This document shows, one piece after another, positions 1,132 through 63,458 of a DNA stretch of 64,000 nucleotides. The DNA comes from a virus. Lineage: Duplodnaviria > Caudoviricetes. Numbering within the stretch: the stretch's first letter is position 1; the number at the start of each line of letters is the position of its first letter. Below the pieces are notes generated by a model, which was not told the DNA's origin, searched no databases, and worked only from the letters and a program-made list of their open reading frames with translations. The translations under genes were made by a program, and so were the position numbers. Location: positions 1-64,000 of IMG/VR virus record IMGVR_UViG_3300026088_000015; one strand, written 5' to 3'.

Positions 1132-1294
1132 TCTCATAAGAAGGGCTACATGGAAGAAAAAATGGTTCTATTTATCTGATACCGATGAATGGTTTTCTCC
1201 ATCCCAAATAAGAAGACTTGTTCATTTAGAACATAAAATAGGGAGATTTATTCTTCGATACCCAAGAGAAATGTTAATTAACTATAATAAATGA
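1112..1294 (+). CDS. hypothetical protein
   Basis: Fills the gap between neighbours, with ATGA overlap to the next ORF. Confidence 0.45.
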   Translation: MSKIKPSLIRRATWKKKWFYLSDTDEWFSPSQIRRLVHLEHKIGRFILRYPREMLINYNK

Positions 1295-1986
1295 GAATAC
1301 CTAAGAATATAGTTTTAGTAAAGCTGGAGAAGAAATCAGAGAATGAATACATTTTCGGAAACGGACATGTAATTCACCTGATGGTAGAACTCGATGCTCA
1401 CAAAGATGGGTCTTACAACCCTAACAATTACGTAAGGATTTTCGGAGAAGTGGTAGCTATACCAGACAGGCTCGGCAAAGGAGGAAAAGATGAGTCCGAG
1501 CCTGTGGTATGGTTCAACGATGCTCCTAAATATATAGATTCAATTGTAGAAGAAGTCCAGGTAGGAGATAGGATCTACTTCTATTACACGCAAATAAGCG
1601 AACATAATATTCTGGAATGGGAGGGAGGTCTTTATTATAAAGTTCCCTATACTCAAATCATCTGTGCCATCAGGGACAATGAAATGATCATGATCGGAGG
1701 ACATATTCTACTAAAACCATACTATGGAGAAGGAATAGTAGAAGAAAATATAGCTGGACATAGAGTGTTCGGTAAAATGACTTCCTTTGGAGTTTTCATG
1801 CCTGTAGCTAAGCCAGAGGAAAGGAAAGGAATAGTTGCCCATGTGGGCACTCCATTGATCGGAGATGAGGCTAATTTAGCCATAGGAGACCTTTGTTATT
1901 TCCCAGTAAACTATGATGTAAAAACTACCATTGAGGGAGTTGAATATTATACAATGCGTCAACACGAAATACTTTGTACTTTATGA
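1291..1986 (+). CDS. phage co-chaperonin with two tandem GroES (Cpn10)-like domains
   Basis: Two GroES-type motif sets: NIVLVK...GEVVAIP...VQVGDRIYF...VPYTQIICAI and GHILLKP...GIVAHVG...LAIGDLCYF...IEGVEYYTMRQHEIL. Confidence 0.75.
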   Translation: MRIPKNIVLVKLEKKSENEYIFGNGHVIHLMVELDAHKDGSYNPNNYVRIFGEVVAIPDRLGKGGKDESEPVVWFNDAPKYIDSIVEEVQVGDRIYFYYTQISEHNILEWEGGLYYKVPYTQIICAIRDNEMIMIGGHILLKPYYGEGIVEENIAGHRVFGKMTSFGVFMPVAKPEERKGIVAHVGTPLIGDEANLAIGDLCYFPVNYDVKTTIEGVEYYTMRQHEILCTL

Positions 1987-2129
1987 GAAAAACGATCATT
2001 ATTGTAATGGCATTATATGCTTTTTTATGGGCAACTGTTCTGTTAGTAAGTTGTGTTAAATCTGGACACAAGCATCAACCATGGCACAATGGATCTTCTA
2101 ATCTTGGAGGGAAGCGATACAAGAAATGA
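1983..2129 (+). CDS. 48-aa putative lipoprotein (absent from the ORF track)
   Basis: Hand translation MRKTIIIVMALYAFLWATVLLVSCVKSGHKHQPWHNGSSNLGGKRYKK, with lipobox LVSC and ATGA overlaps on both sides. Confidence 0.6.
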   Translation: MRKTIIIVMALYAFLWATVLLVSCVKSGHKHQPWHNGSSNLGGKRYKK

Positions 2130-2668
2130 AGATATGGTTTAATATGCCCTGGTCTCAAGAAAAGAACATTGGGAAGGCTTACAATGAGTTTATGGAACTT
2201 CTGCCAGAAGAAGACTATGCTTGCTTCTGCGATGGGGATACGATGTTCCTGACAAGTAACTATGGCACTCAGTTATATGACATAGTTAAGAAATATCCAG
2301 AATGTGAAATATTTACCTGTAAGACTAATAGGATAGGTTGTATATATCAGCGCGAGCCTGAGATGTGGTGGGAAAATAATATTCTAATGCACGATGAGAA
2401 AGCTGCCCTATTAAGCATTGAAAAATATGATCAGGTAAAAGACATTACTGCATTTGGGACTGACGATCCCATGGGAGGCGTAATGATCCTAATATCCAAA
2501 AGAGCTTGGAGAACTATCGGAGGATTTAAAGATGGTATGCTTGGGGTGGACAATGATATTCACTGGAAGGCTATATCCAAAGGAGAGAAGGTTTACTTAA
2601 TGGAAGGAGTTTATCTTTTCCATAAATACAGAAATGGATATGCTAAAAATAATCAACATTTAATATAG
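2126..2668 (+). CDS. GT-A fold (GT2-like) glycosyltransferase
   Basis: KNIGKAYNEFM...DYACFCDGDTMFL (DxD), GGVMILISK, GMLGVDNDI, GVYLFH. Confidence 0.7.
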   Translation: MKIWFNMPWSQEKNIGKAYNEFMELLPEEDYACFCDGDTMFLTSNYGTQLYDIVKKYPECEIFTCKTNRIGCIYQREPEMWWENNILMHDEKAALLSIEKYDQVKDITAFGTDDPMGGVMILISKRAWRTIGGFKDGMLGVDNDIHWKAISKGEKVYLMEGVYLFHKYRNGYAKNNQHLI

Positions 2669-2669
2669 T

Positions 2670-2930
2670 ATGAATGATAAAATAGATACAGTGGGCGCAG
2701 CATTTCCTATTGCTTATACGGAATCAAGTTTTGGAAATCAAAATCCATTAATGCCAGAAACTGGGATGACATTGAGAGACTATTTTGCAGCATCAGCAAT
2801 GCAAGCCTTGATTAACAAAACTAAAAATGATGCGGTTAGTAACCATGGCACACAATGCCAAGATGAAATTGCGAATGACGCATTTAAAATTGCCGATGCT
2901 ATGTTAAGACAAAGAGAAATTAATTACTAA
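2670..2930 (+). CDS. conserved phage hypothetical protein
   Basis: AFP...GMTLRDYFAASAMQAL...AFKIADAML motif, common in phages. Confidence 0.75.
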   Translation: MNDKIDTVGAAFPIAYTESSFGNQNPLMPETGMTLRDYFAASAMQALINKTKNDAVSNHGTQCQDEIANDAFKIADAMLRQREINY

Positions 2931-3607
2931 TGAAAATAATCTTCACTGCCATCATCGGCAATTATGATCGCCTTAAAGAACCAGTAGTATATACTCCAGG
3001 ATGGGAATATATCTGCTTCACAGATACTCCTGACCTAGTTTCTGAAGTATGGACTATTGTAGATATTAGCGATCATCCAGCACTCCAAGGATTAGATGAT
3101 ATTCGGAAAGCTAGATACATAAAAATAAACTTTCATAAATTCATAAAGGCAGAATATTCTATTTGGCACGATGCCTCAATGTGGATCATGTGTAACTTAG
3201 ATGAATTCTGGTCGAATTATTATCACAATCAATTTACTATACTTCAGCATCCAGATAGGGACTGTGCTTACAATGAAGTAACGGCCTGCATGAGGCTCAG
3301 GAAGGATAGCAATGAGGTCATGACCAAACAGATGAACTTCTACTGGAAACAAGGGTTTCCTATGAATATAGGACTTGCTGCAAGTGGAATAATTCTTAGA
3401 AAAAGAAACAAGCATACTATAGAATTCTGCGAGAACTGGTTTGATGAAATAAGAAGACATTCTACTCGCGATCAATTAAGTTTCAACTACACCGCATGGC
3501 ACAATGAGTTTAGTTTCTCATACATACCATTCTATACAATATTTAGTCACTTCATGTTAAATAAACACAATGCAAGACCAATTACACAAAATAGAGCTGA
3601 AGGCTGA
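2930..3607 (+). CDS. DUF616 (TOD1/MUCI70-like) glycosyltransferase
   Basis: IFTAIIGNYD.LKEP, YICFTD, ARYIK, IWHDAS, HPDRDCAYNE, SGIILR, W..EI...STRDQLSFNY. Confidence 0.8.
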   Translation: MKIIFTAIIGNYDRLKEPVVYTPGWEYICFTDTPDLVSEVWTIVDISDHPALQGLDDIRKARYIKINFHKFIKAEYSIWHDASMWIMCNLDEFWSNYYHNQFTILQHPDRDCAYNEVTACMRLRKDSNEVMTKQMNFYWKQGFPMNIGLAASGIILRKRNKHTIEFCENWFDEIRRHSTRDQLSFNYTAWHNEFSFSYIPFYTIFSHFMLNKHNARPITQNRAEG

Positions 3608-4301
3608 AGAGCGCCCACAAAGATTTGATGTTATCAATGGACTTATCAAGGCTATGGGATATAAAAGATACCTAGAGATTGGTGTTCAAAATGGCGAGTG
3701 CTTCAAGAAAATTCAATGTGAATATAAGGTAGGAGTAGATCCTTCGGAGTATTCCAAGGCTACAATATTCCAAACTTCAAATCAATTCTTTAATGATAAT
3801 ATTGAGATGTTTGATATTATTTTCTTGGATGGACTTCATGAGAAAGATCAAGTATTGATGGATATTCAGAATTCTCTTAAGTTCCTTAAGGCCAATGGTA
3901 CTATAGTGTTACATGACTGTAATCCAGAATCAGTAGAGGCACAAACAGTTCCTCGCATGAATAGAGTATGGAATGGCGATGTTTGGAAAGCTTGGGTAAC
4001 CCTTAGAAGAAAAGAGCCATTTCTCGATATGTGTGTGCTAAATATGGATCATGGAATTGGCCTTCTTAAGCCGGGGAAACAAGATCTGATAGATTATACT
4101 GAAGAATCAGAACTGGCACTACACACTAAAGTCGATTACTTTGATCTAAATGACGATGCAACAGAAAAAGGATGGGAGAAATTCGACAAGGAGTGTTACG
4201 AAGCTCTTGACCGAAACAGAAAAGAATGGCTCAATCTAACAACAGAGATTACACTTAAATATGATACCTATGAATCTGGAAGTAGCAATATTGATCATTA
4301 G
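3570..4301 (+). CDS. class I SAM-dependent methyltransferase (Methyltransf_24-like)
   Basis: YLEIGV, VGVDP, FDIIFLDGLH, GTIVLHDCNP, WNGDVWKA. Confidence 0.85.
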   Translation: MQDQLHKIELKAEERPQRFDVINGLIKAMGYKRYLEIGVQNGECFKKIQCEYKVGVDPSEYSKATIFQTSNQFFNDNIEMFDIIFLDGLHEKDQVLMDIQNSLKFLKANGTIVLHDCNPESVEAQTVPRMNRVWNGDVWKAWVTLRRKEPFLDMCVLNMDHGIGLLKPGKQDLIDYTEESELALHTKVDYFDLNDDATEKGWEKFDKECYEALDRNRKEWLNLTTEITLKYDTYESGSSNIDH

Positions 4302-4506
4302 TATTTCAACAGTACTTTATACGGCTTTCATTATAAGCAACAAAGAGCATTATAAATTGTACAGAAAATGGAAAGGCGGCATCTGGTATCAATATGAATG
4401 GCCAGAAATCCCTTACAGATACTGGACCCAAGAAATTCAACCATTGGACAAACACATAAAAACTGAAAACTATGATCCACGCCAAGGAAGCCCAGCTATT
4501 GTATGA
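4261..4506 (+). CDS. hypothetical protein with N-terminal TM segment
   Basis: Hydrophobic N-terminus, within the co-oriented operon. Confidence 0.5.
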   Translation: MIPMNLEVAILIISISTVLYTAFIISNKEHYKLYRKWKGGIWYQYEWPEIPYRYWTQEIQPLDKHIKTENYDPRQGSPAIV

Positions 4507-4699
4507 CCTATCGATTAACAGTGACTTATTTCTTATCGATTCACTGATAAGAAATGCTGCCTGTAATGGTCTCAAGCAAATAAAATATAATGTAGCGGAT
4601 ATCGCCACCCATCATAGATATATCGATATCATGCTAGATAGTGGATACATGGTAAAATCAAGTAAGACAGAAGCTGAAATAACTATTTCATGGGAGTAA
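4472..4699 (+). CDS. hypothetical protein
   Basis: Operon position only. Confidence 0.55.
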   Translation: MIHAKEAQLLYDLSINSDLFLIDSLIRNAACNGLKQIKYNVADIATHHRYIDIMLDSGYMVKSSKTEAEITISWE

Positions 4700-5016
4700 A
4701 GGATAATCATAGCTTGGCCATGGTGGCACTCATGGTACATGTTCACCAAGCCTCCAACTGGGCGCTTGTATTAAAAGATAAGGTAACAGGAGAAATGAAG
4801 TTCCGACTCAATGGAGGGCTAGGTCATTTTAATAAATTATGCAATGACCTTGAGAAAAATGCAGACGAAAGTTTAAATGATCTTTATGATCGCGGAAACA
4901 CTATTGATCGTCTCTTATCCTTATCCATGGATGACCCTAAAAAATATAATGAAATAATTGATCTGATACAGATGCACTTAAATAATGAACTTACTATACT
5001 AGATCAGAAACCTTAG
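4690..5016 (+). CDS. hypothetical protein
   Basis: Operon position only. Confidence 0.55.
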   Translation: MGVKDNHSLAMVALMVHVHQASNWALVLKDKVTGEMKFRLNGGLGHFNKLCNDLEKNADESLNDLYDRGNTIDRLLSLSMDDPKKYNEIIDLIQMHLNNELTILDQKP

Positions 5017-5043
5017 TTTTATTGAATTATTATTGTATATTTA
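5017..5043 (+). promoter_or_regulatory. repeated promoter/operator motif, copy 1
   Basis: TTTTATTGAATTATTATTGTA is identical to 10477-10497 and ends in TATATTTA, a variant of the Bacteroidota -7 element TAnnTTTG. It lies immediately before an ORF start. Confidence 0.65.
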
Positions 5044-5044
5044 A

Positions 5045-5707
5045 ATGATGAAAATAGCTGTAGTAACTGTTAATATTGGAGAGATAGATGATGTGAAGCC
5101 TATTCCATCACAGAGCATAGGATATGATTATTTCTGCTTCACAGATAGCAATCTTCCGTTCCCAATGAGTGGGCTTGACAATAGAATGAAATCTAAGTAT
5201 CTAAAAACTCAACTCCATAGAATACTTCCAGATTATGATATGTATATCTACTTAGATGGTAGAGTAGAGGTGGTATCAGAAGGGTTCGTAAAAGAATTCG
5301 CTGATGCTATCGAGCAGGAGGCTGAAATAGTTTGCTATGCTCATAATGATCGCGATAATGTCTATGAGGAAATCGAATACATTATAAACGCTATCGAAGA
5401 CGGAAAAGAATACCTTAAAGTTAGGTATGGTCACCAGGATCTTCAATCAGAGGTTGATTTCTTCAGAAGAGAAAATGTTCCTAATGATTGTAGGCTTTTA
5501 AGGGCTACAGTATTCGGCATTGGAAATAATTATCATACCAACAAGGTGATGGATGAGTGGTGGGCCAAGTGCTGTCAGTTTACAAACTTCGATCAGGCTA
5601 TGTTTTCATACATAGTATGGCTACATTTCAATGGAAAGAAGAGTGTCAAATTAATTGAGACTGACAATGAATTCTTCCAGTATAATAAACACATAAAAAT
5701 AGCATGA
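5045..5707 (+). CDS. second DUF616-like glycosyltransferase
   Basis: YFCFTD, SKYLK, YIYLDG, HNDRDNVYEE, W...FTNFDQAMFSY. Confidence 0.75.
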   Translation: MMKIAVVTVNIGEIDDVKPIPSQSIGYDYFCFTDSNLPFPMSGLDNRMKSKYLKTQLHRILPDYDMYIYLDGRVEVVSEGFVKEFADAIEQEAEIVCYAHNDRDNVYEEIEYIINAIEDGKEYLKVRYGHQDLQSEVDFFRRENVPNDCRLLRATVFGIGNNYHTNKVMDEWWAKCCQFTNFDQAMFSYIVWLHFNGKKSVKLIETDNEFFQYNKHIKIA

Positions 5708-6459
5708 TAAACATATCTACGGAGCAGGCTTTTGGAATAATAATGAGTCATCTAAATAGGAAAATACCATTCTGCCTAACCAGATTTGGTGATGGAGAAG
5801 CGATGTTCCTTAAGGGGAACAAAGATCAGGTTGACTTCGTAATGAAAAGACAACTTGGCTTTGTGCCGGACTACAAGGATCTTCAATTGATTACCAAGAA
5901 CCTGATGGACACTTATCATCTTAGCGACATGATTGGAGTGTCTACCCAGCGACATGTTGACAAGAAAGATTTCTGGGCTGAAGTTATTACGATCATAAAC
6001 GAGACTGGTATTTATGCTTCTGTAGATCACTATTGTAGTATAGATATTCACTACGACTTCCTGAAAGGCGGGTATTATGATATGATGCTTCAGGACACTG
6101 ATGAACTATACTACATATCTTGCCGTAACCTTGATCAGGAATTAAAAGATCACTTCAATATAAAAGAAGTTCATTCATTTATCATTCCTCCAGAGATGGC
6201 TTTCGAGTCTTCTTATGAAGGGGATAAGCACTACCCTGATGCTTTTCTAAAAGCTTCCGATTGGATAAGACAACATGGCAATGAAGGCAAACTACTTCTT
6301 GTGGGTGGTGGTATTGTTGGAAAGGCTTATTGTGCCAAGTGGGCAATGGAAGGTGGAGTTGCTATTGACATAGGCTCTATCTTCGATGAATTTGCAGGAA
6401 GAGTTACCAGAGGACAAGGAAGGGGTGTAGATGTTTACGATGAAACCAGAAAAATATAA
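5704..6459 (+). CDS. GT-D fold (DUF1792-like) glycosyltransferase
   Basis: PFCLTRFGDGE near the N-terminus and LLLVGGGIVGK...VAIDIGSIFD near the C-terminus. Confidence 0.7.
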   Translation: MINISTEQAFGIIMSHLNRKIPFCLTRFGDGEAMFLKGNKDQVDFVMKRQLGFVPDYKDLQLITKNLMDTYHLSDMIGVSTQRHVDKKDFWAEVITIINETGIYASVDHYCSIDIHYDFLKGGYYDMMLQDTDELYYISCRNLDQELKDHFNIKEVHSFIIPPEMAFESSYEGDKHYPDAFLKASDWIRQHGNEGKLLLVGGGIVGKAYCAKWAMEGGVAIDIGSIFDEFAGRVTRGQGRGVDVYDETRKI

Positions 6460-6869
6460 TGGAGAAAATATATTCAAGGACCAAGCTGGATACGCTTCTT
6501 CATATAATCGTGAAGAAAAAAGATTTTATCGACGGCAGACAAGACATTATTGATGCTGACCAATTTCTTCAGTGTTCAATGCTTGGGTTAAATAAAGGCA
6601 AGACATTCGCTCCACACGAACATATTTGGAAGGATGGCCCACAAAGAGTTATTGCTCAAGAGTCTTGGGTATGTATACATGGAAGCGTTAAGTGTATATT
6701 CTATGATCTGAACGGAGAGTTACTTGCAGAAAGAATCATAGAGGCCGGAGACGCATCGTTTACATTACAAGGTGGGCACAATTATGAATGTTTAGAAGAT
6801 GATTCACAGGTGCTGGAATTTAAGGTAGGTCCATATCAAGGACAAGAATTAGACAAAGTTTTTATATGA
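6459..6869 (+). CDS. WbuC-like cupin-fold protein
   Basis: PHEH, QESWVCIHGSVKCIFYD, GGHNYECLED, EFKVGPY. Confidence 0.75.
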   Translation: MEKIYSRTKLDTLLHIIVKKKDFIDGRQDIIDADQFLQCSMLGLNKGKTFAPHEHIWKDGPQRVIAQESWVCIHGSVKCIFYDLNGELLAERIIEAGDASFTLQGGHNYECLEDDSQVLEFKVGPYQGQELDKVFI

Positions 6870-7549
6870 AGGTAATAGTAACAACATCAAATCGCTACGG
6901 ACATTTATTACCCGTCTTCTGCTTCTTATTTAATAGGTTCTGGGGCTCAGATCAGCAAGTAGAAATAGTGGGATATAAAACGCCTACATGCGAACTTCCT
7001 GACAACTTCACATTTGTATCTCTTGGAGAACAGATAGGAGGGCCAGAGAATTTTAGTACAGACCTACGCGCATACTTTGAGTTACAGGATCAATACGTGA
7101 TTTGGTGTATGGAAGATTCGTTTTTTAAGGCTCCGGTAAACCATAGAAACATACGCTTGGCCACTCAATTCGCCATCGATGGTATGGGAGATCCAATAGG
7201 AAGAATAGGATTAACTAATGATAGCTATAAACAATATGATCAATTATATGGCGTAGTTGACTATGTAGACATTTATATGACTCCACAAAAATCAGAGTAC
7301 CGACTATCTACTCAACCAGCAATATGGAATCGAGATTATCTATTGAGATATATGACTCCAGGATTAAATCCATGGCAGTTCGAGTGTCAGGAGAAAGTAG
7401 AAGATGAATTCTTAAACTTATGCTTAGAAAAGAATGAAGCTCCGATCGCCTTCAATGAAGGAGTGCGCAAGTGGGATCTGTATGCTCTGAATTTAGAAGG
7501 AATACCAGAAGAAGTTATTAATGAAATGAAACAACTAGAGATATTATGA
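6866..7549 (+). CDS. putative GT-A-like glycosyltransferase
   Basis: VIVTTSNRY, YVIWCMEDSFF, YRLSTQPAIWNRDYL, PWQFE, a pattern seen in polysaccharide-locus proteins. Confidence 0.5.
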   Translation: MKVIVTTSNRYGHLLPVFCFLFNRFWGSDQQVEIVGYKTPTCELPDNFTFVSLGEQIGGPENFSTDLRAYFELQDQYVIWCMEDSFFKAPVNHRNIRLATQFAIDGMGDPIGRIGLTNDSYKQYDQLYGVVDYVDIYMTPQKSEYRLSTQPAIWNRDYLLRYMTPGLNPWQFECQEKVEDEFLNLCLEKNEAPIAFNEGVRKWDLYALNLEGIPEEVINEMKQLEIL

Positions 7550-8082
7550 AATTACATATCGGATGCGGGAAACGTTACTTCGGCAAGGATTGGATTCATA
7601 TTGATGGAGGAACTTTTGACCATGTAACAAGTCATAGCATATACTGTGAATACGTGCCAGACAATTCAGTTGATGTTATTTATGCGTCACATTTAATTGC
7701 ATATCTCAGCGAAGATGAATTTTCTTACTTACTTAATTGCTGGAAAAGAGTACTGAAAGAAGGGGGTACCTTACGATTAGCTACGCCAGACTTTGATGCA
7801 CTTGCCGAGATATACGTATGGACTCATAGTATAAAAATGATTGAAGGTCCGCTATACGGAAAAATGAAAATGGGAGACAAGACTATATATCACAAAAAGG
7901 TTTATGACTTCAACTCTCTGGCTACCGTGCTTCATAAAGCTGGATTTAAGGATACAAGACTCTACAACTGGAGAGAGACTGAACATGCTCACATAGATGA
8001 TCACAGCCAAGCATATATGCTTCCAGATAGAGATAAAGAAAAAGGAACACTAATTAGCTTAAATGTCGAGTGTGTCAAATAG
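7546..8082 (+). CDS. SAM-dependent methyltransferase (Methyltransf_11-like)
   Basis: KLHIGCG, WIHID, VDVIYASH, RVLKEGGTLRLATPD. Confidence 0.85.
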   Translation: MKLHIGCGKRYFGKDWIHIDGGTFDHVTSHSIYCEYVPDNSVDVIYASHLIAYLSEDEFSYLLNCWKRVLKEGGTLRLATPDFDALAEIYVWTHSIKMIEGPLYGKMKMGDKTIYHKKVYDFNSLATVLHKAGFKDTRLYNWRETEHAHIDDHSQAYMLPDRDKEKGTLISLNVECVK

Positions 8083-8908
8083 CCTACGGTGTACAGTTTG
8101 CGGTTGCCACTCCAGCGAAGAAGATTGGCACAAAGAAGATGTTCCATGTTCAGTATGTGGACATCATGAAGCGATAAAGTGCCCATTCTGTGAAGAAATA
8201 TTTGACATATCATATATACAAGACCATGAAAAAAGAGTGAAAATGAAGGAGATTTCAAAAGAGTACATTAAAGAATTAATAGGGCATGATCAATGTTTTG
8301 TACTGGATGTAGGATGTTATACTGGTTCGGACGGAGCTGAAATAGCAGAGTTAATGCCCAAGTGTGAAGTAGTTTGTTTTGAAGCTGATCCGCGCTCACA
8401 ACAACTTTTCGATAAGTTCAATGGCAATAACAAAAAGATGATTCTTTATCCTATGGCCATGGGAAATGTAGACGGACCTATAGACTTTTATCCAAGCTAT
8501 AGTGATACTCGTAGACACTTCGACTTCCAAGAAAGTTGGTCAGCCAGCGGCTCTACTAAGAAAGCCAAGGAGCATCTTAACTTATTCCCCGATGTAGAGT
8601 TTAATGGATCAATAAAGGTTCCTTGCGTTAAGCTAGATACTTGGTATGCTTTTCATGCCTTCCCTCGTCCTATAGACTTCGCATGGGTAGACCTTAATGG
8701 ATCAGAAGAAGATTTTATTTTAGGAGGGATAAATACACTCAGTAATCATACCAGATTCTTATACATAGAATTCAGCGATAAGGAATTGTATGAAGGACAG
8801 ATTACCAAGAAGAAGATCCTGGAAATGCTTCCTAATTTTATTCTTATTGATATATTCAACTTGGGTGAGAACTTTGGAAATCTATTACTTAAAAATACCA
8901 AGATATGA
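8063..8908 (+). CDS. FkbM-family methyltransferase with in-frame N-terminal Cys-rich extension (alternative ATG at 8243)
   Basis: VLDVGCYTG, VCFEADP, PCVKLD, IDFAWVDLNGSE, FLYIEF. The first 60 aa contain three CxxC motifs. Confidence 0.8.
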   Translation: MSSVSNSLRCTVCGCHSSEEDWHKEDVPCSVCGHHEAIKCPFCEEIFDISYIQDHEKRVKMKEISKEYIKELIGHDQCFVLDVGCYTGSDGAEIAELMPKCEVVCFEADPRSQQLFDKFNGNNKKMILYPMAMGNVDGPIDFYPSYSDTRRHFDFQESWSASGSTKKAKEHLNLFPDVEFNGSIKVPCVKLDTWYAFHAFPRPIDFAWVDLNGSEEDFILGGINTLSNHTRFLYIEFSDKELYEGQITKKKILEMLPNFILIDIFNLGENFGNLLLKNTKI

Positions 8909-9492
8909 ACTTCGAAGTAGTAGAAGAATTTGAGAAAAAGATAGCTGAGTTCTTTGGAGCTCCTTTCGCTGTTATGACCGATAGCTGTACTCATGCAATA
9001 GAGTTATGTTTAAGATACAGGGAACAAGATCATATTTGCTGTCCGAATCATACATACCTATCGATCCCTATGTTAGCTAAAAAGCTAAATATAAAATTAT
9101 CTTTTAACGATAGAGATTGGAATGATTACTATTGGTTGGATCATGAAATAATTGATGCTGCTGTTCTATGGAAAAAAGATTCGTATTTACCTAATACATT
9201 TATGTGTGTCAGTTTTCAATATCAGAAACACTTAAGCTTGGGTCGAGGAGGAATTATTTTATGTGACAAGAGAAATGATGCATTGCAACTTAAGAAGATG
9301 TCCTACGATGGAAGACTTCCTAATATTCCTTGGAGAGATCAAGATATTGATACAATGGGCTACCATTATTACGCCACGCCAGAAACCGCTGCACTAGGGC
9401 TACAGAAGCTTCCAGAGGCAATAGCAACAGAACCAAGAAAATGGTCAGTAGAAAACTGGCCCGACCTAACTAAGATGACAATTTTCAAATGA
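8905..9492 (+). CDS. shortened DegT/DnrJ/EryC1/StrS-family PLP aminotransferase
   Basis: EEFEKKIAEF, DSCTHAIELCL, DAA, SFQYQKHLSLGRGG (PLP-lysine motif), GYHY. Only 195 aa. Confidence 0.8.
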   Translation: MNFEVVEEFEKKIAEFFGAPFAVMTDSCTHAIELCLRYREQDHICCPNHTYLSIPMLAKKLNIKLSFNDRDWNDYYWLDHEIIDAAVLWKKDSYLPNTFMCVSFQYQKHLSLGRGGIILCDKRNDALQLKKMSYDGRLPNIPWRDQDIDTMGYHYYATPETAALGLQKLPEAIATEPRKWSVENWPDLTKMTIFK

Positions 9493-10466
9493 AGAAAGTA
9501 TTAATAACAGGCGCGGGGGGCCAAACGGCCTCGTATCTTGCTGAATATTTATTATCCCTTGGAGGGTTTAAAGTATTTGGAATGATACGAAGAAATAGCA
9601 CTCCAGAGAACCAGGAGAACAGAATATCACATCTTGAAGATAGGATAACTACCTTCTACGGAGACCTTACTGATCCCGCTTCAATTGATATGATATTGAA
9701 AGCAATAAAGCCAGATTACATTTTTAATCTGGCGGCACAGTCCCATGTTCGTATTAGCTACGACATCCCATCTTATACTGTCCAAGCTAATGCTCTTGGC
9801 GTTCTTAATTTATTAGAATCGATGCGCGTTAATTGTCCCAAGGCAAGGCTACTACAGGCGAGTAGTAGTGAAATGTTCGGAGATAGCGTAGATGAGGACG
9901 GATATCAAAGAGAGAGCACTCACATGACACCAGTCTCTCCTTATGGATGTAGTAAACTATTCGCTTACTCTTTAATTAGAAATTATCGCATAGCCTATAA
10001 GTTGCATCTCTGTAATTCCATCTGCTTTAACCACGAGTCTCCGCGCAGGGGATCAAATTTCGTTACCAATAAAGTAGTAAAGGCTGCAGTAAGAATTAAA
10101 CTTGGCCTTCAGGATAAGTTGGAACTTGGCAATATGGATAGTTACCGGGACTGGGGACATGCTAAAGACTATGTAAAAGCTATGTTGATGATTATTATCC
10201 AGGAAGAACCTTCTGATTACGTGGTATCTACCGGGGAAACCCGATCAGTAAGAGAGATGTGCGATTATGTTTTTAGCAAACTAGATCTTGATTACACCAA
10301 CTACGTAGTGCAGAATCCTAAATTCCTGCGACCTCAAGAACTTCCATATCTAAAGGGAGACTCCAGCAGGATAAGAAGAAAAGGATGGAAGCCTACTTAC
10401 ACCTTCGAGACCATGCTAGATGAGATGATAGGTTACTGGGAATCAGTGTATAAAGAAAAACTTTAA
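9489..10466 (+). CDS. gmd: GDP-mannose 4,6-dehydratase
   Basis: LITGAGGQTASYLAE, NLAAQSHV, QASSSEMFG, SPYGCSK, FNHESPRRG.NFVT.K, LGNMDSYRDWGHAKDYV. Confidence 0.95.
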   Translation: MKKVLITGAGGQTASYLAEYLLSLGGFKVFGMIRRNSTPENQENRISHLEDRITTFYGDLTDPASIDMILKAIKPDYIFNLAAQSHVRISYDIPSYTVQANALGVLNLLESMRVNCPKARLLQASSSEMFGDSVDEDGYQRESTHMTPVSPYGCSKLFAYSLIRNYRIAYKLHLCNSICFNHESPRRGSNFVTNKVVKAAVRIKLGLQDKLELGNMDSYRDWGHAKDYVKAMLMIIIQEEPSDYVVSTGETRSVREMCDYVFSKLDLDYTNYVVQNPKFLRPQELPYLKGDSSRIRRKGWKPTYTFETMLDEMIGYWESVYKEKL

Positions 10467-10476
10467 GTCTTTATTG

Positions 10477-10503
10477 TTTTATTGAATTATTATTGTACCT
10501 TTG
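10477..10503 (+). promoter_or_regulatory. repeated promoter motif, copy 2, with Bacteroidota -7 element
   Basis: TTTTATTGAATTATTATTG followed by TACCTTTG (10496-10503), an exact TAnnTTTG match. Confidence 0.75.
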
Positions 10504-10510
10504 AAATACA

Positions 10511-10813
10511 ATGAAGAAATTGTATAATCAAGGCAAGAGTATATTGATAGATCCATCCAATGTAGAGGTATGGAGAATGGTTGGGTTTGTGATTCTTTTA
10601 TTGCTGTCAGTTACAGTAACGCTCACTTGGTTCGCGCATGAAATCATAAAAATTATTTACGATCAGAACGGGGATGGATTCAAAATTCTCATGAACTATA
10701 TAGGCACCTTATGCTATGTAGTGGTAATAACATGCCTGATTGTTTATGGGAATATTAAGATTTATCGGATGGTGAAGTATAACTTAATTAAATTCAAGAA
10801 AAATATACATTAA
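10511..10813 (+). CDS. membrane protein, 2 TM
   Basis: Two hydrophobic stretches. Confidence 0.6.
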   Translation: MKKLYNQGKSILIDPSNVEVWRMVGFVILLLLSVTVTLTWFAHEIIKIIYDQNGDGFKILMNYIGTLCYVVVITCLIVYGNIKIYRMVKYNLIKFKKNIH

Positions 10814-24193: not shown

Positions 24194-24997
24194 ATGACAC
24201 TACTCGAAGCAATAATTGATAATAAAAACGTCACACCCTCAACTATGAAGAACTTAAAATCTCTTCAGAACTTTATGGCTGAGTTCCTGAACAAGGAAAT
24301 GAAGAAAAAAGACGTTCTACTTAAATCTGTTGACCAAACTTTTTGGAAAAAATTCCAAGAATTTTCCCTAAAAAAAGGCAGCAGTCACAACTATATCATC
24401 ACACAAGTTCGCTATCTAAATGCAATGGTGAAAAGAAATCAAGCTTTCTTTCAGATACCGACACCCATTAAAATTGTTTCTGGATCAAAGCCAAAGCACA
24501 AATTTCTGACTAAAGAACAAGTGGAGGCGATAAAGCAATCTGAGCCCTCATTATACAAAGACTGGTTTTTATTCCAGTGCTACACCGGGATGGCTTTCGA
24601 TGATCTTAAAAGGCTCAGCAAAAAATCTATTCTTGAAACTGAGGATGGGCCACTATTGGAGTACATTCGCGGGAAGACTGAGAAACGCTCAGGGGAGCCT
24701 TGTAGGCAACCTATCGACTTGAGGGCACTAGATATACTATTCAAGTACAAATACACATTCACAACGCCTTATTCAACGTATAACGACGGCTTGAAAAGGT
24801 TAGGAGAAGAGCTTGGATTCCCTCTTTCTACTCACATGGCCCGTCATACATTTGGAACCAACGCAGTAAGTGACGGCTGGCCTCTGGAACAAGTAAAAGT
24901 AATGATGGCTCACAGTTCCATTCTCACTACTCAGAGATATGCTTTTGCCAACACAAAAAGCCTGTTTGAAATGAAAAGAAAGATAGACTCAAAATAA
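24194..24997 (+). CDS. tyrosine recombinase/integrase, Bacteroidota type, no arm-binding domain evident
   Basis: FLFQCYTGMAFDDL, RGKT, LSTHMARHTFGT, MMAHSSILTTQRYA. Confidence 0.9.
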   Translation: MTLLEAIIDNKNVTPSTMKNLKSLQNFMAEFLNKEMKKKDVLLKSVDQTFWKKFQEFSLKKGSSHNYIITQVRYLNAMVKRNQAFFQIPTPIKIVSGSKPKHKFLTKEQVEAIKQSEPSLYKDWFLFQCYTGMAFDDLKRLSKKSILETEDGPLLEYIRGKTEKRSGEPCRQPIDLRALDILFKYKYTFTTPYSTYNDGLKRLGEELGFPLSTHMARHTFGTNAVSDGWPLEQVKVMMAHSSILTTQRYAFANTKSLFEMKRKIDSK

Positions 24998-31666: not shown

Positions 31667-32338
31667 ATGAGCAAAGACGCATTAATTAGAAATAAATGGA
31701 TGTCCTTCTATACTGGATTCCATAAAATAGCAATCAAAATAAGTCTAGCATCTTACTTTGATACTAGGGCAATGATAGTACTATCACTCGGATGGGGACA
31801 ATTGTTCTTACATCTCCCAATAAGATCAAAGATTGATGATGCAGAATATCCGGTATGGGGATTCTATTTCTATGGTGAAACCAAATGGTGGTTTGATACT
31901 TTCTGGGTGTGCCTTGGAAGGAAAATAAAATGCTTTCACATGCCTTGGCAATGGGATTGGGTCAGAACCAGTAATCTTAGAAAAGATGGAAATTGGGAGC
32001 ATGAGACAAAGAAAGATAGAAAGTCTTTTTATGAAAAAAAATGGGATGATATAATTCACTATGAAGAGCATCCTTTTGTATATACGCTTAAAAGTGGAGA
32101 GGTTCAAAATAGAACCGCAAGAATAAAAACAGAAGAAAGAGAATGGAAATGGAGAGGTTTTAGATGGCTTAAATATCCTTCTATGATTAGGCAGACGATA
32201 GCAATTGAGTTCAGTGATGAAGTAGGTGAAGAAACTGGATCATGGAAAGGCGGCACTTTGGGCTGTTCTTATGATTTATTGAAAGGAGAAACTCCGCTGC
32301 AAGCTTTAAGAAGGATGGAATTAAACAGAAATTTCTAA
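31667..32338 (+). CDS. conserved phage hypothetical protein (Trp-rich)
   Basis: EREWKWR...IAIEFSDEVGEETGSWKGGTLGC motif. Confidence 0.7.
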   Translation: MSKDALIRNKWMSFYTGFHKIAIKISLASYFDTRAMIVLSLGWGQLFLHLPIRSKIDDAEYPVWGFYFYGETKWWFDTFWVCLGRKIKCFHMPWQWDWVRTSNLRKDGNWEHETKKDRKSFYEKKWDDIIHYEEHPFVYTLKSGEVQNRTARIKTEEREWKWRGFRWLKYPSMIRQTIAIEFSDEVGEETGSWKGGTLGCSYDLLKGETPLQALRRMELNRNF

Positions 32339-41002: not shown

Positions 41003-44000
41003 TTAATGTTTCTTTTTTTTCTTTTTAATGCCAAATATTTCTTGTTTTGCTTCTATAGTTGCTTCTCTTTTGTAAGAGTCAATTTCATCCTTCACATCCC
41101 CAGGAGTCATTTTATCTAATTTCCCCATGTTAGCAATTATTCTTTTTTTAATAAATGCTCCACGAGCCTTACTATATTCATAATACTCTCTGTCGCTTAC
41201 TTCTCCTTCCCATCCTGTATCATTTAAACTAGATTGCAATTGATTCTTACTGACTTTACCTATCCATGCTTTATTATTTATAATAACATCCCATGCTGCT
41301 GCAGTCTGCGCATCATCAATTTTATTGTAAGATACAAATTTATCCGTATCCGGCACAATAGGGTCACCCAAGGCATTTACCATATCATACATTCCGGAGT
41401 CCAGCCCAGGTATATCACGGTAAAAGTTGTGCCAGAAGGAAGATGTTTGCTTCATAGGAGTGTCCGTTGTGGCCATGATATCCTTGGCAATCTGAGTATA
41501 AGCATTAGGAACTACATATCCTTTTGCTGCACTGGCCAATACCTTTTTAAGAGTGTTTACACTAGCCGTAGGAGTATCTTCAGAGAAGGCAGACATAAAC
41601 TCACTCATACCCTTTAAGAAGGTCATATCAGTTATAAACTGCATTCCCTTCCATGTATTTATGAATAATGTTTCTGCTATGGTTTTATCGTCCAACGATT
41701 CCGATTTATACTTTTCATTGTCGCGCAAGTTGCCAATAATAGCGAAAGGAATAGCGAAAGGAGTATTTAGATATGAATACCATTTGTCCCCTATTTTGAT
41801 TGAATATTTTTGCCATCCTTTTTGGGCTAATTCATAGTTCTTTTTAACATCTCCAGTCCCATCAGCGGTAATCCTAATAAGCCCGTCATCATCATCTGAC
41901 ATAGCATAAGCAGCCATCATGGCAAGCACTCCAGCAGTTGCTTTTATGGTAGCCTTCTTCTTTTCATCGGCAGAATATTGCCGTTTATACTTTTCAGTTG
42001 CAAGAGATCCTGTTCCAAATATGGCCCTTTTATACCCCCATGGGGTCCATTCTACATATCGATTGGCCACATTGGAGACAATTCTTGTAAAAGGAACTAC
42101 ATATTTCAAAGGTTTTATGCCTTTAAATCCTACCTTTTCTACTACACCAGCAACAGCATCGGTGATCATCCCTAATGTTCCATCAGCGGGGCCATTGAAT
42201 GTACTGCGCAATGCAAAATCTGCACTATCTTCGATTATCTCTTGACTTCTATTTTGTTCAAGAATCTCAACTACTCTTCTTTTTAAATCCAGGCCACTTA
42301 ATCCTTCTTCTTTAGCCTGTGCTTCAGCAGCTACTTTCTTTTCTTTGGTATTATTAAGCGTTTCAGATACAGCCTCCCATATTTTAGTATCCGGAAATTC
42401 CTTTTTCTGAACTCGCGCCATATCAGCAGCCATCTCTGAAGCCCTCATTTCTCTCAATCCAGAATAAGCAACTGCATCAGCAGCGCTCATCAGTCTTGAT
42501 ACATACTTCCATGCAGTGAAAGGATGTTTTATTTTTATATCCGTGAATGGTATTCTTAATTTTGGAGCCACTTCTAAGGCGTTAGGACCTTCTACCTTCT
42601 CGTTTTTAACAGGAGAATATCCAGTAGCTAGCGTCGCTCTTGCCTCTAGTAGTCCTTTTCTATATCCACTTAATAACCCTCCTACTAATATTCCTGTATT
42701 TTTCGGCTGCTTAGCCATAGACACAGTTAGCTCTCCCACCGTCTCCACAGCGTTGGCAAAAGAGTTTGTTACATGAGTTTTATATCCAGAAAGAACATTC
42801 GCATACCACACGGAAGTAGCTATATCGGTCCAGTTCACACCCTTAAGGGTGGTTTGAAATTTATACAAATCCTGAATAGCTCTTGACTTCTGAAATCCTT
42901 CTGGAGTAGTTTGTACCCTATTGGCCAGTTCGCGTAGTTTTGTAGTCTGTTCTTCGGTTAATTCTTTAGCAGAAAATTCATCTGCATAAATTTCAGATAG
43001 CGCCTTTTCATCTACCGATCCAACATTGCTAAGTTCTATTACTTTTTCGTAAGCTTGCTTAAGCTTTTTAGGATAAACCTTGTCTTGAAATTTAGTTTTT
43101 GCCTTCAGGATAGATAGTTTTTTTTCATTTGACAACCTATCAAAAGTATCTTCCACTAGTTTTGCTAATTGAGCCGCATCTGATTCAGAGATATCAAGAT
43201 CATCAATTAATTTATCTACTAAATCAGATTTTTTCTTTTGTACTTCGGAGTAATGCTGAGTGACTATTTTATCAAAAGTCTCATCAATATTTTCCTTAAC
43301 TACTCTCTCTGTCTTATTTTTTATCTTATCAGACTTAGCCAAAGAAGATAATTTCTGTCCCTCATGAGAAGCGTTCCATATATCATCAATATAAGGCTCC
43401 GAATCATCTCCAAGTTCAGCACGCATCTTTCTTGACCACGACTTAAAATCATAGTAACCTTCTTTGATAAGGTAGTATCCATACTTAGCTCCTTCAGCCA
43501 ATATTTTAGCTGTCAACTGAGGATCGATACCAGAACTAGCCCTAGAATTTAATTCCTTGAAGAGATTAGAAAGATTATCCTTAATCTCCTTTTTGGCCTT
43601 ATTTATCTTCTGTCTTTCAGTTTGCTCTTTTTCTTCAGTACCTTTTTCTTTCTTAGGTTTTCTTTCTTTTATTTGATCGAGTTTACCTTGGATTCTTTTA
43701 TCTTTTCTGGTTTGCCCGGCAATATTTTTGTTGGTGTCGTTGAGCTCACTAGCAAGGGTTGCAAAGCGACCCTTGTTCTTTTCTTTGTATTCATCTCTTA
43801 ATTTATTAATAGCACTGTTACTGGCAATGACATGCACCTCCGGAGAAGCATCTTTCATTAATTTATAAGCGTTTGCCGCTCTACCAGTTTCAGTAGCCTG
43901 TTCTTTTACTGCTTGGTCAATAATTTGACTTTGTATCTGAGCATATTCATTGGCCACAACTTTATTTCCAGCTTTGATAGCTTCATTGTATTTTTTTGCA

Positions 44001-62236: not shown

Positions 62237-62497
62237 ATGGCAATCCTAATAACACTCCACGTAGTAAAAGGTCATGCAGTAGAGCAAGTTCTTACTGCTG
62301 CAACTGCGGTAGACGTAGCTTTCAATACAGCATTTATTGTTGACGCTCAAAGCTTAGATAGCTTCGCTACTCAGCCTTCTGGCGCTAGAACAACTTTCCG
62401 TTATGCAGATCCTTCCTCTGGCAGAGGAGCAGATCAAGTAGATGTAACTAATCCTTACTCTGCTGTTGTTGCTGCATCAAACGCTCCATTAGCTTAA
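62237..62497 (+). CDS. 86-aa Ala/Val/Thr-rich protein, candidate capsid decoration protein
   Basis: ATG at 62237 downstream of the late-type motif; codon choice resembles the MCP (gct, gta, act, tct). Confidence 0.55.
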   Translation: MAILITLHVVKGHAVEQVLTAATAVDVAFNTAFIVDAQSLDSFATQPSGARTTFRYADPSSGRGADQVDVTNPYSAVVAASNAPLA

Positions 62498-63458
62498 TCC
62501 TAAGCTGATTTACCGTTTTTAGCTGACAATTCTCCTGAATGAATTGCCATGATTGCTTGTGAAGTGATTCTAAATCATATTCGCCTGTGATCATGGCTTT
62601 CAGCTTTTCCTTGAAGTCAGATCCATAATTTACTATTCCAGGCCGGTGCCATTCGGCAGTATCCGGAGCTAAAGTTACAGCTCCCGCATAAGTTCCCTCT
62701 ATCCAAGCATTATTGCTATGACACATTGAATAGGGAGAACTTCTATTTAACATAACAACATTAATACTGCATCTGAGAGTAGGAAGATATGCAATGTAAT
62801 CAACTACCGATCGGAAGTCATGATACTTGGCATTATGAAACTTTCTAAGGAACAAAGGAGATAGTCCCAGAAAATCAACGTGCCACTCATGCTCATTAAT
62901 TACTTCTACTAGATCATTGGAGAAGTCTTGCACGTCCTCCATGTGGGCATAGGAGCCCCTGTGAAGAAGGTTCTGTGTTTTATTAAACTCTGGGGCCTTG
63001 TTAAAAACAAGTGGCTCATAAGCGTTCCTAATGATGTGAACATTGGTCCCAACCCCGGCTTCGTATTTTAGATATCCTGCAAGAGTTTCGGTGGATACCC
63101 AAATCTGATCAGCAAGCCACATACATTCTTTAGCGATATCATGCGTTTGCTTACTATTGAACTCTGAGGCTCCGGCAATGTGCCCAGGAACCTCAAAAAT
63201 ATAATCATCAATATCCACAATTACTTTAACGCCTAATCTCTTGGCAAGCTTAATGTTATCCAAATCAGCTTTCTTGTACGGAGACTTTACAAATATTATG
63301 TTAAATAGAACTAGAAAGTCCCAAGTAATTGGCTGTCCAGAATAAGGAATAACCTCAATTTCTGGGTACTCTTTCTGCAGTATTGCAAAGGGAAGCCTAC
63401 TCCGATAAAAGGAAATAGCACTGGAAGTGTTGGCTGTTAGGTCAAGGATTTTGATCAT
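62448..63458 (-). CDS. GT-B fold (GT4-like) glycosyltransferase
   Basis: FYRSRLPF, VDIDDYIF, ADQIWVSTETL, HIIRNA, GSYAHMED, SNNAWIEGTYAGAVTL. Confidence 0.75.
   Translation of the reverse strand: MIKILDLTANTSSAISFYRSRLPFAILQKEYPEIEVIPYSGQPITWDFLVLFNIIFVKSPYKKADLDNIKLAKRLGVKVIVDIDDYIFEVPGHIAGASEFNSKQTHDIAKECMWLADQIWVSTETLAGYLKYEAGVGTNVHIIRNAYEPLVFNKAPEFNKTQNLLHRGSYAHMEDVQDFSNDLVEVINEHEWHVDFLGLSPLFLRKFHNAKYHDFRSVVDYIAYLPTLRCSINVVMLNRSSPYSMCHSNNAWIEGTYAGAVTLAPDTAEWHRPGIVNYGSDFKEKLKAMITGEYDLESLHKQSWQFIQENCQLKTVNQLRIKLMERLMQQQQQSKD

Follow-up and report, generated by a model that had tools for sequence, protein, structure and literature searches.

The 64,000-nucleotide window examined here is the first 64 kb (positions 1 to 64,000) of the linear IMG/VR virus record IMGVR_UViG_3300026088_000015 (72,471 bases; CheckV completeness 60%). 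Judged by gene content, the 8.3 kb between positions 2126 and 10466 constitute an intact, phage-borne operon for building a glycan, which carries no export genes. Central to it is a half-size DegT-type pyridoxal-phosphate (PLP) enzyme, here called mini-DegT, which together with a GDP-mannose 4,6-dehydratase (Gmd) and a small cupin recurs in phages of very different kinds. We propose that the phage runs a cytoplasmic pathway of its own that makes a glycan and attaches it to an acceptor, most likely a virion protein of the head or fibre; to this reading we assign a probability of roughly one half.

The open reading frames (ORFs) of the operon (Table 1) are co-oriented, and neighbors either overlap by 1-38 bases or are separated by gaps of at most 28 bases; all are open, with no frameshifts or stops seen. 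The original prediction, which had been made from the sequence without database searches, described one co-oriented, tightly coupled cluster, and that description holds, with the ORF coordinates exact. Eleven of its 12 enzyme assignments were reproduced by Pfam, PHROG, and NCBIfam, the exception being a "further GT-A-like" protein at 6866-7549, which the databases do not support. It was also right that the enzymes have no transmembrane segment: none contains a 19-mer with a Kyte-Doolittle hydrophobicity above 1.3. Multi-pass membrane proteins were sought throughout the 64-kb window, and no ORF had more than three hydrophobic segments, those with three being antisense shadows; there is thus no flippase, polymerase, or initiating transferase. 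The predicted lack of a flippase, Wzy, exporter, or initiating transferase in the window is therefore confirmed, and the genes that define a Wzx/Wzy- or ABC-dependent O-antigen or capsule locus (initiating transferase, flippase or exporter, and polymerase) are missing.

Mini-DegT matches PF01041 with 55.5 bits against a cut-off of 19.8, but only over profile positions ~25-119 and 187-255 of ~360. The DegT family assignment in the original prediction was thus correct, although the protein does not have the usual length, being 195 residues instead of ~370, and it lacks the two-domain architecture (~360-400 amino acids with a C-terminal small domain). The best match of the family profile in the PDB was GDP-perosamine synthase, in which the lysine of the SFFGNK motif aligned with K108 of mini-DegT. 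The same enzyme was the top Foldseek match of an AlphaFold (AF2) model of the phage protein (predicted local distance difference test score, pLDDT, 92.2), with a coverage of 0.71 of the query and 0.40 of the target. Taken together, the profile blocks and the fold coverage indicate that mini-DegT amounts to the PLP-binding large domain with one beta-alpha unit missing, and that it has no C-terminal domain at all.

The short form is not an accident of this genome. A word-indexed search returned at least 7975 homologues of 107-342 amino acids, the top 120 of which were 193-224 amino acids long and 67-76% identical. A profile search of 1.84 billion cluster representatives gave 238 clusters at E ≤ 1e-30; among those listed, the complete-looking ones were mostly ~190-260 amino acids and matched end to end, and the remainder were fragments or fusions. 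We considered and rejected a broken or fragmentary DegT, because members of the family are normally this short and the neighboring ORFs include no second part of a DegT. By these sequence comparisons, the ~200-residue short DegT proteins are a large, almost wholly viral subfamily that is distinct from the standard members. In an alignment of 30 sequences reaching down to 43% identity, 38 columns were invariant, including T29, Y51, D84, S103, and K108, which motif comparison would assign to the phosphate, ring stacking, the pyridine nitrogen, and the Schiff base. Dehydratases of the ColD and E1 types are recognised by a histidine in the last of these positions; the lysine found here points to an aminotransferase rather than to a dehydratase of either type. 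Catalysis and PLP binding are predicted from the conserved residues. In rare cases elsewhere, mini-DegT is fused to class I or FkbM methyltransferase domains; these domains are not closely related to the methyltransferases of the window, and the fusions therefore support coupling in general only. Flavobacterium phage immuto (L079) encodes both a full-length DegT (399 amino acids, 5277-6476) and a short DegT (214 amino acids, 8986-9630) within one glycan cluster, and its gp98 is annotated WecE. The literature searched contained no functional study of either the short DegT proteins or the combination of cupin, mini-DegT, and Gmd.

The gmd gene starts 4 bases before the mini-DegT stop codon. Its product matches PF16363 over the whole profile (1-332 of 332) with 345.8 bits against a cut-off of 27, but falls below the cut-off of the NCBIfam equivalog TIGR01472 (324 against 415). 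The motifs GAGGQTASYL, SSSEMFG, SPYGCSK (YxxxK), and NHESPRRG are all present and were aligned with Arabidopsis Gmd (1n7g), and the 11 best PDB matches are all Gmd proteins (E down to 6e-78). The third member, the cupin, had no match in Pfam, and sequence-profile comparison with the PDB gave only spurious repeat-protein matches. Its invariant residues are H53, H55, Q67, E68, and H107. Foldseek alone, run on an AF2 model (pLDDT 80.9), returned generic cupins, whereas structural alignment with VIA-align placed it with WbcA, the 3,4-ketoisomerase FdtD, RmlC, ChmJ, EvaD, and GDP-heptose epimerases (Z 9.6-11.2 over ~110-119 residues). The fold, together with the fixed linkage to Gmd and mini-DegT, suggests that the cupin acts on the 4-keto intermediate, on the evidence of the model probably as an epimerase or isomerase and ahead of the amination step. 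The final sugar may consequently be either a 4-amino or a 3-amino dideoxyhexose. The amination of the Gmd product by a DegT enzyme, as originally proposed, is consistent with GDP-perosamine synthase being the closest solved relative; plain perosamine as the product is not assured, as the cupin is a core partner.

A pattern-based scan identified 75 loci in IMG/VR, on contigs of 4-292 kb. Mini-DegT is present in all 75, Gmd in 68, the cupin in 61, and Methyltransf_24 in 16. The gene order is close to fixed: the cupin, zero to six variable genes, mini-DegT, and then Gmd, which follows mini-DegT in 68 of the 75. The variable genes encode a hexapeptide acyltransferase (34 loci), GT11-like, GT2, and GT4 glycosyltransferases, FkbM methyltransferases, a KASIII-like enzyme, a PhyH dioxygenase, a UDP-GlcNAc 2-epimerase, and a second short-chain dehydrogenase/reductase. 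Across a cyanomyophage, a 642-kb phage, and 30-kb phages, the cassette core is ~55-75% identical. The same scan of 185,579 species genomes gave a single match, on a contig of a Ferruginibacter metagenome-assembled genome, in which terminase, portal, protease, and capsid genes directly follow the cassette; these structural genes identify the contig as a phage or prophage. A sensitive profile search of 301 genomes of the same order gave three matches at E ≤ 1e-25, two of them cellular, with 28-37% identity and neither Gmd nor the cupin nearby. A near-identical bacterial O-antigen locus, which the original prediction had named beforehand as the finding that would count against it, was thus looked for in both genome sets and not found. 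We rejected a bacterial origin or an O-antigen twin, as the sole genome match is phage-like and the cellular matches are distant. One locus on a bacterial chromosome of that order (L086:7515-10593, genome G278) encodes a short DegT of 213 amino acids with 37% identity, preceded by genes for a BKACE enzyme, a hexapeptide acyltransferase, and a GT2 protein; it may be a cellular cousin of the phage family.

Three methyltransferases accompany the cassette in the window. The FkbM protein passes its PF05050 cut-off (52.1 against 22.7 bits) and carries the S-adenosylmethionine (SAM) motif VLDVGCYTG. The Methyltransf_24 protein, whose PHROG label is "DNA methyltransferase", is probably a glycan O-methyltransferase, as judged by its family. 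The best PDB matches of the Methyltransf_11 family, weak and partial, are phosphoethanolamine N-methyltransferases (E 5e-6). In other phages the hexapeptide acyltransferase is the commonest upstream neighbor of the DegT-Gmd pair (16 loci). Thirty-three loci have only the acyltransferase, 17 only Methyltransf_11, one has both, and 22 have neither, although related loci are not independent counts; no distinct architecture has both within the six genes upstream of mini-DegT. The use of one slot by either gene and their near mutual exclusion are suggestive, and this exclusivity, the PDB relatives, and the mini-DegT-methyltransferase fusions together argue for N-methylation here and N-acylation elsewhere. 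The Methyltransf_11 enzyme therefore probably N-methylates the amino sugar, if gene slots and relatives are a reliable guide.

Of the transferases, the 180-residue glycosyltransferase (GT) aligns with the C-terminal half of phrog_26101, a family of fused phage GTs, and its Pfam match, to GT2_3, reaches only E 0.028; the first DUF616 protein aligns with the N-terminal half of the same family. Both DUF616 proteins pass the PF04765 cut-off of 21.4 bits (67.4 and 24.6 bits), and both are putative glycosyltransferases, the activity of bacterial and phage members being a prediction. The GT-D-like protein is marginal with respect to PF22882 (29.5 against a cut-off of 27), scores 15.6 against a cut-off of 75 for NF040628, and has no match among PDB sequences; its FGDGE at residues 29-33 is presumably the metal-binding Asp-x-Glu (DxE) motif of the GT-D fold. 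The protein at 6866-7549 belongs to a family (family 21) without a match in Pfam (10 members), PHROG, NCBIfam, a PDB profile search, or GenBank phages. Its gene follows the cupin in 12 loci. In the ESM Atlas its neighbors are all viral, and the nearest named cluster is GT2 in 25% of members (score 0.93), a weak lead on which we call it a putative transferase. The small ORFs at 2670-2930 and 4261-5016 match no family; among the 75 loci they are matched only in a sister phage record (L002), at 75% and 97-99% identity, respectively, and that at 4261-4506 contains one hydrophobic segment (Kyte-Doolittle 19-mer, 2.33).

Table 1. Predicted genes of the operon, and two genes elsewhere in the window that are discussed in the text.
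Feature	Position	Strand	Matches
GT-like protein, 180 aa, soluble, DGD motif	2126..2668	+	phrog_14179 E 1e-26; phrog_26101 positions 228-396 E 2e-23
86-aa ORF	2670..2930	+	no family match
TOD1/MUCI70 (DUF616) GT-like protein 1	2930..3607	+	PF04765 E 1.7e-18, 67.4 bits; phrog_26101 positions 5-188
Class I SAM methyltransferase, Methyltransf_24	3570..4301	+	PF13578 E 1.4e-8; motif I LEIGVQNG
Three small overlapping ORFs, 81, 75, and 108 aa	4261..5016	+	no family match
TOD1/MUCI70 (DUF616) GT-like protein 2	5045..5707	+	PF04765 E 1.8e-5, 24.6 bits
GT-D-like glycosyltransferase	5704..6459	+	PF22882 29.5 bits; FGDGE near N-terminus
Core cupin, WbuC-like, RmlC-like fold	6459..6869	+	TIGR04366 35.7 bits, under cut-off 42
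Putative transferase, 227 aa, family 21, known from viral sequences only	6866..7549	+	no family match
Small class I methyltransferase, Methyltransf_11 type, N-terminal HIGCG	7546..8082	+	PF08241 E 1.3e-5
FkbM methyltransferase, N-terminal triple CxxC zinc ribbon	8063..8908	+	PF05050 E 1e-13, 52.1 bits; phrog_8156
Half-size DegT-type PLP enzyme (mini-DegT), 195 aa	8905..9492	+	PF01041 E 7.5e-15, two stretches
GDP-mannose 4,6-dehydratase (Gmd)	9489..10466	+	PF16363 E 4e-103
Tyrosine integrase	24194-24997	+	Phage_integrase + SAM-like domain
Glycosyltransferase in late (virion) arm	62448..63458	-	phrog_7162 E 4e-13

The case for a virion acceptor is drawn from relatives and from nothing in this window. 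In six loci (L027, L028, L033, L051, L056, and L077), a gene set of the window type immediately precedes the terminase large-subunit gene, in the same orientation. The shared set comprises Methyltransf_11, mini-DegT, Gmd, a DUF616 GT, and Methyltransf_24, plus the cupin and family 21 where the locus reaches that far; portal, head-morphogenesis, protease, and capsid genes come next where the locus extends. L027 is a phage of 30,270 bases that is 99% complete, and the terminases of the other loci are 49-81% identical to its own. In the cultured Cellulophaga phage phi12:1, gp39 and gp40 are flanked by the head-morphogenesis gene on one side and by the genes for the prohead protease and the major capsid protein on the other; gp39 is a homologue of the Methyltransf_24 protein at 3570-4301 (E 2e-16), and gp40 is a 407-amino acid fusion, the N-terminal half of which is 30.5% identical to the product of 2930-3607 and the C-terminal half 33% to that of 2126-2668. 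The paper on phage phi18:1 assigns the corresponding GT, together with a "DNA methyltransferase", to the structural module, and there roles in lipopolysaccharide (LPS) or DNA modification were only guessed. The position of these homologues at head-gene operons favors virion glycosylation as the predicted function.

The pathway that we propose would begin with the conversion of host GDP-mannose to GDP-4-keto-6-deoxymannose by Gmd, for which homology is strong. The RmlC-like cupin, by its fold and linkage, would then epimerise the keto sugar or shift its keto group, and mini-DegT, a single-domain PLP enzyme that probably works as a dimer, would transaminate the product to a perosamine-type GDP-amino-dideoxyhexose, as its catalytic residues, closest relatives, and linkage suggest. 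The amine would next be N-methylated by the Methyltransf_11 enzyme, or in other phages N-acylated by the hexapeptide acyltransferase instead, and FkbM and Methyltransf_24 would O-methylate sugars. Four or five soluble transferases (the 180-amino acid GT, the two DUF616 proteins, the GT-D-like protein, and perhaps the 227-amino acid family 21 protein) would join the amino sugar and host sugars into a short methylated oligosaccharide on its acceptor in the infected cell. The glycan would serve as a surface coat of the particle.

Several observations weigh against this scheme. In the window itself the operon is located on the arm opposite the virion genes and adjoins recombination genes; its transferases are thus not part of a virion structural operon, unlike the homologous gene sets of L027, L028, L033, L077, and phi12:1. 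Ser/Thr-Gly-x-Thr sequons are not enriched over shuffles in the virion proteins of this phage, and the Ser/Thr-rich stretches of fibre-like proteins, being compositional only, were not used as evidence. The beta-alpha unit and C-terminal domain that mini-DegT lacks are found in every characterised family member. In the fold ranking of the cupin, designed metalloproteins and dioxygenases tie with nucleotide-sugar cupins, and its epimerase and ketoisomerase matches tie at Z 10-11, so that the two reactions are not distinguishable. The N-methyltransferase assignment consists of a weak partial match and gene-slot logic. The GT in the late arm could, from its sequence, be part of the system, and it is present in the sister record but absent from four other cassette-bearing records; a tie to the operon by co-occurrence was rejected because it is common only to the sister phage. 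Finally, the tyrosine integrase makes a temperate lifestyle possible, and lysogenic conversion conceivable.

That last point leads to the alternative that the enzymes act on, or feed, an undecaprenyl-linked O-antigen or capsule of the host, whose own flippase, polymerase, and ligase would display the product and bring about superinfection exclusion or serotype conversion. Besides the integrase, it has on its side that transferases working on lipid-linked acceptors are often soluble, and that papers on the cyanophage and Cellulophaga phage homologues lean toward this reading, albeit as an assumption. We nevertheless consider it unlikely: the window encodes no initiating transferase, flippase, polymerase, or ligase, and the gene layout would place the operon on a common transcript with ordinary phage genes, away from the integrase. 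Much of the gene set lies beside or inside head operons in small and in cultured phages, and the core identity among very different phages would be odd for a product dependent on host-specific export. Attachment of the glycan or amino sugar to phage DNA bases as a block to restriction might be suggested by the cassette lying just before the terminase gene in relatives, by the "DNA methyltransferase" label on Methyltransf_24 homologues, and by phage transferases reported, in a passage of PMC12619734 that cites Pyle et al. 2024, to decorate DNA with varied glycans. Such a function is improbable, however, as neither this record nor four relatives, including the 99%-complete 30-kb phage, encodes a thymidylate-synthase-type hydroxymethylase; the so-called DNA methyltransferase is a small-molecule-type class I fold with no match to a DNA-recognition domain; and five transferases plus N- and O-methylation far exceed the needs of known DNA sugars. 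No Tet/JBP match was obtained either, but the positive control of that search also failed.

There is also little to commend the idea that the product aids host takeover, as a soluble glycoside or through modification of a host protein or metabolite, and forms no structural coat. The operon does lie among early- or middle-type genes in the window, and the mini-DegT of phage S-SCSM2R is annotated as an antibiotic-type (AHBA synthase-like) enzyme, but that label is only a family-level match, GDP-perosamine synthase being the closer relative, and the near-constant pairing with Gmd, as well as the many transferases often found alongside, points to a glycan. It is very hard to credit that the operon is an inactive, decaying moron cluster with the short DegT and the sub-threshold cupin and GT-D as remnants, even though the DegT is half the usual length and several matches fall under curated cut-offs. 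Thousands of sequences have this short form, which retains invariant catalytic residues and yields a confident model; no gene has a frameshift or stop; the sister phage keeps all of them, and its Gmd hosts an in-frame intein, typical of genes under selection. A self-made glycan on a virion protein remains our preferred reading.

Parts of the system have counterparts elsewhere. The GDP-perosamine pathway of Gram-negative O-antigens (Caulobacter crescentus 3BN1, 3DR4) likewise combines Gmd with a DegT-family PLP enzyme, and the hexapeptide acyltransferase of other phages takes a position like that of the N-acetyltransferase PerB. The phage enzyme is unlike its counterpart in having ~195 rather than ~370 residues, minus ~40 internal residues and the C-terminal domain, and the phage has a core cupin partner, a methyltransferase in place of the acetyltransferase, and no Wzx, Wzy, or ABC export genes. 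The glycans of the chlorovirus PBCV-1 capsid and of Mimivirus fibrils are made by virus-encoded Gmd or other 4,6-dehydratases, aminotransferases, methyltransferases, and soluble transferases, independently of the host, in the cytoplasm, and on virion proteins. Their hosts are eukaryotes, their aminotransferases are full-length, and their glycan has been demonstrated, whereas the phage operon is known from its genes alone. Mycobacteriophages Che8, Corndog, and Myrna, in work by Freeman and colleagues dating from 2023, are said to O-glycosylate their virions by means of soluble transferases and a methyltransferase that act on capsid and tail proteins. In relatives of the window, the glycan genes are in the virion operon, whereas the present operon is outside the virion arm; the mycobacteriophage systems include no genes for sugar-nucleotide synthesis, and both enzyme families and hosts are different.

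Closer at hand, the cyanomyophages S-SCSM2R, S-SCSM1, and P-SSM2 carry uncharacterised gene sets for "LPS / cell-wall synthesis and modification" (PMC12801897). ORF305 of S-SCSM2R belongs to the mini-DegT family (52.6% identity) and lies among glycosyltransferases, but it does not adjoin Gmd and is labelled "AHBA synthase, antibiotic synthesis", the authors having assumed host-surface or DNA targets. The Cellulophaga (Helsingorvirus) phages phi12:1 (gp39-gp40) and phi18:1 (gp41), cultured phages of Bacteroidota, have homologues of Methyltransf_24, DUF616, and the 180-amino acid GT at 30-33% identity; unlike in the window, the GT halves are fused (407 amino acids), the genes are inside the head operon, and Gmd, mini-DegT, and the cupin are missing. 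The claim that the system was undescribed does not survive these comparisons: parts of it occur, under putative annotations, in cultured phages of cyanobacteria, Flavobacterium, and Cellulophaga.

The sister phage L002 has the whole operon at 90.8% nucleotide identity and 95-98% amino acid identity. Most of the operon is 90-99% identical between the two phages, but patches of low identity occur in Methyltransf_11 (58% at 7566-7765), mini-DegT (64-70% at 8966-9359), and the cupin (80-86% at 6566-6965). Because these patches lie in genes common to many other phages, the pattern fits an exchange of alleles by recombination. The L002 intein is ~331 amino acids long (L002:9384-10377), begins with Cys, ends in SSGN followed by Cys, and has two LAGLIDADG-like motifs, which mark it as carrying a homing endonuclease; its site corresponds to window position ~10175, where the window Gmd allele is intein-free.

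As to the remainder of the window, the minus-strand arm (34.6-64 kb) carries the virion genes, including that of an 1150-amino acid virion structural protein; on the plus-strand arm, the operon is followed by genes for a YqaJ exonuclease, a resolvase-like nuclease, the integrase, an HNH nuclease, and a homologue of Acb3. A megablast search of GenBank phages with the operon gave no match, and the largest virion protein has no close relative among GenBank phages. An 1863-amino acid protein (41003-46594, minus strand) matches the PHROG "virion RNA polymerase" family over residues 356-1209, weakly but significantly (E 3e-10). The Acb3 homologue (31667-32338, plus strand) is an anti-defence gene, matching over its full length the PF25187 family of inhibitors of the cyclic-oligonucleotide-based anti-phage signalling system (CBASS; E 1.4e-44). 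An IS1595-type transposase within the phage genome (18673-19596, minus strand; DDE_Tnp_IS1595 E 3e-43, plus a zinc ribbon) is on the strand opposite its neighbors, and a 231-amino acid protein (1291-1986, plus strand) has a GroES/Cpn10 co-chaperonin match in its C-terminal 70 residues (E 3e-6). The 44-base gap directly after Gmd contains a near-consensus sigma-70 promoter (10501-10528, plus strand; TTGAAA-16 bases-TATAAT, 11 of 12 matches). It may mark the end of the operon; because a scan for promoters and terminators found sites only at the level of chance, it was not relied on.

It is of course already known that phages and giant viruses have glycan gene sets, and parts of this one have been annotated in cultured phages. 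We tentatively suggest, at somewhat less than even odds, that mini-DegT is a minimal, single-domain sugar aminotransferase that arose and spread almost entirely among phages, forming with Gmd and the cupin a portable cassette for a private GDP-amino-sugar that is N-methylated or N-acylated and coats capsids or fibres. If this is true, no smaller member of this well-studied PLP enzyme family would be known, and mini-DegT would reveal how much of the fold can be dispensed with. The question can be tested in cultured carriers of parts of the system (Cellulophaga phages phi12:1 and phi18:1, Synechococcus phage S-SCSM2R, and Flavobacterium phage immuto). On the suggested reading, virion glycosylation with virus-made sugars would be a common trait of environmental phages, with carriers ranging from 30-kb phages to 640-kb megaphages and hosts including cyanobacteria, Bacteroidota, and others, and it would have implications for the stabilisation of capsids and for the ways in which phages evade recognition and adsorption traps. 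It would also touch on the purpose of the widespread "LPS genes" of marine phages, a question that has stood since those genes were first noticed.

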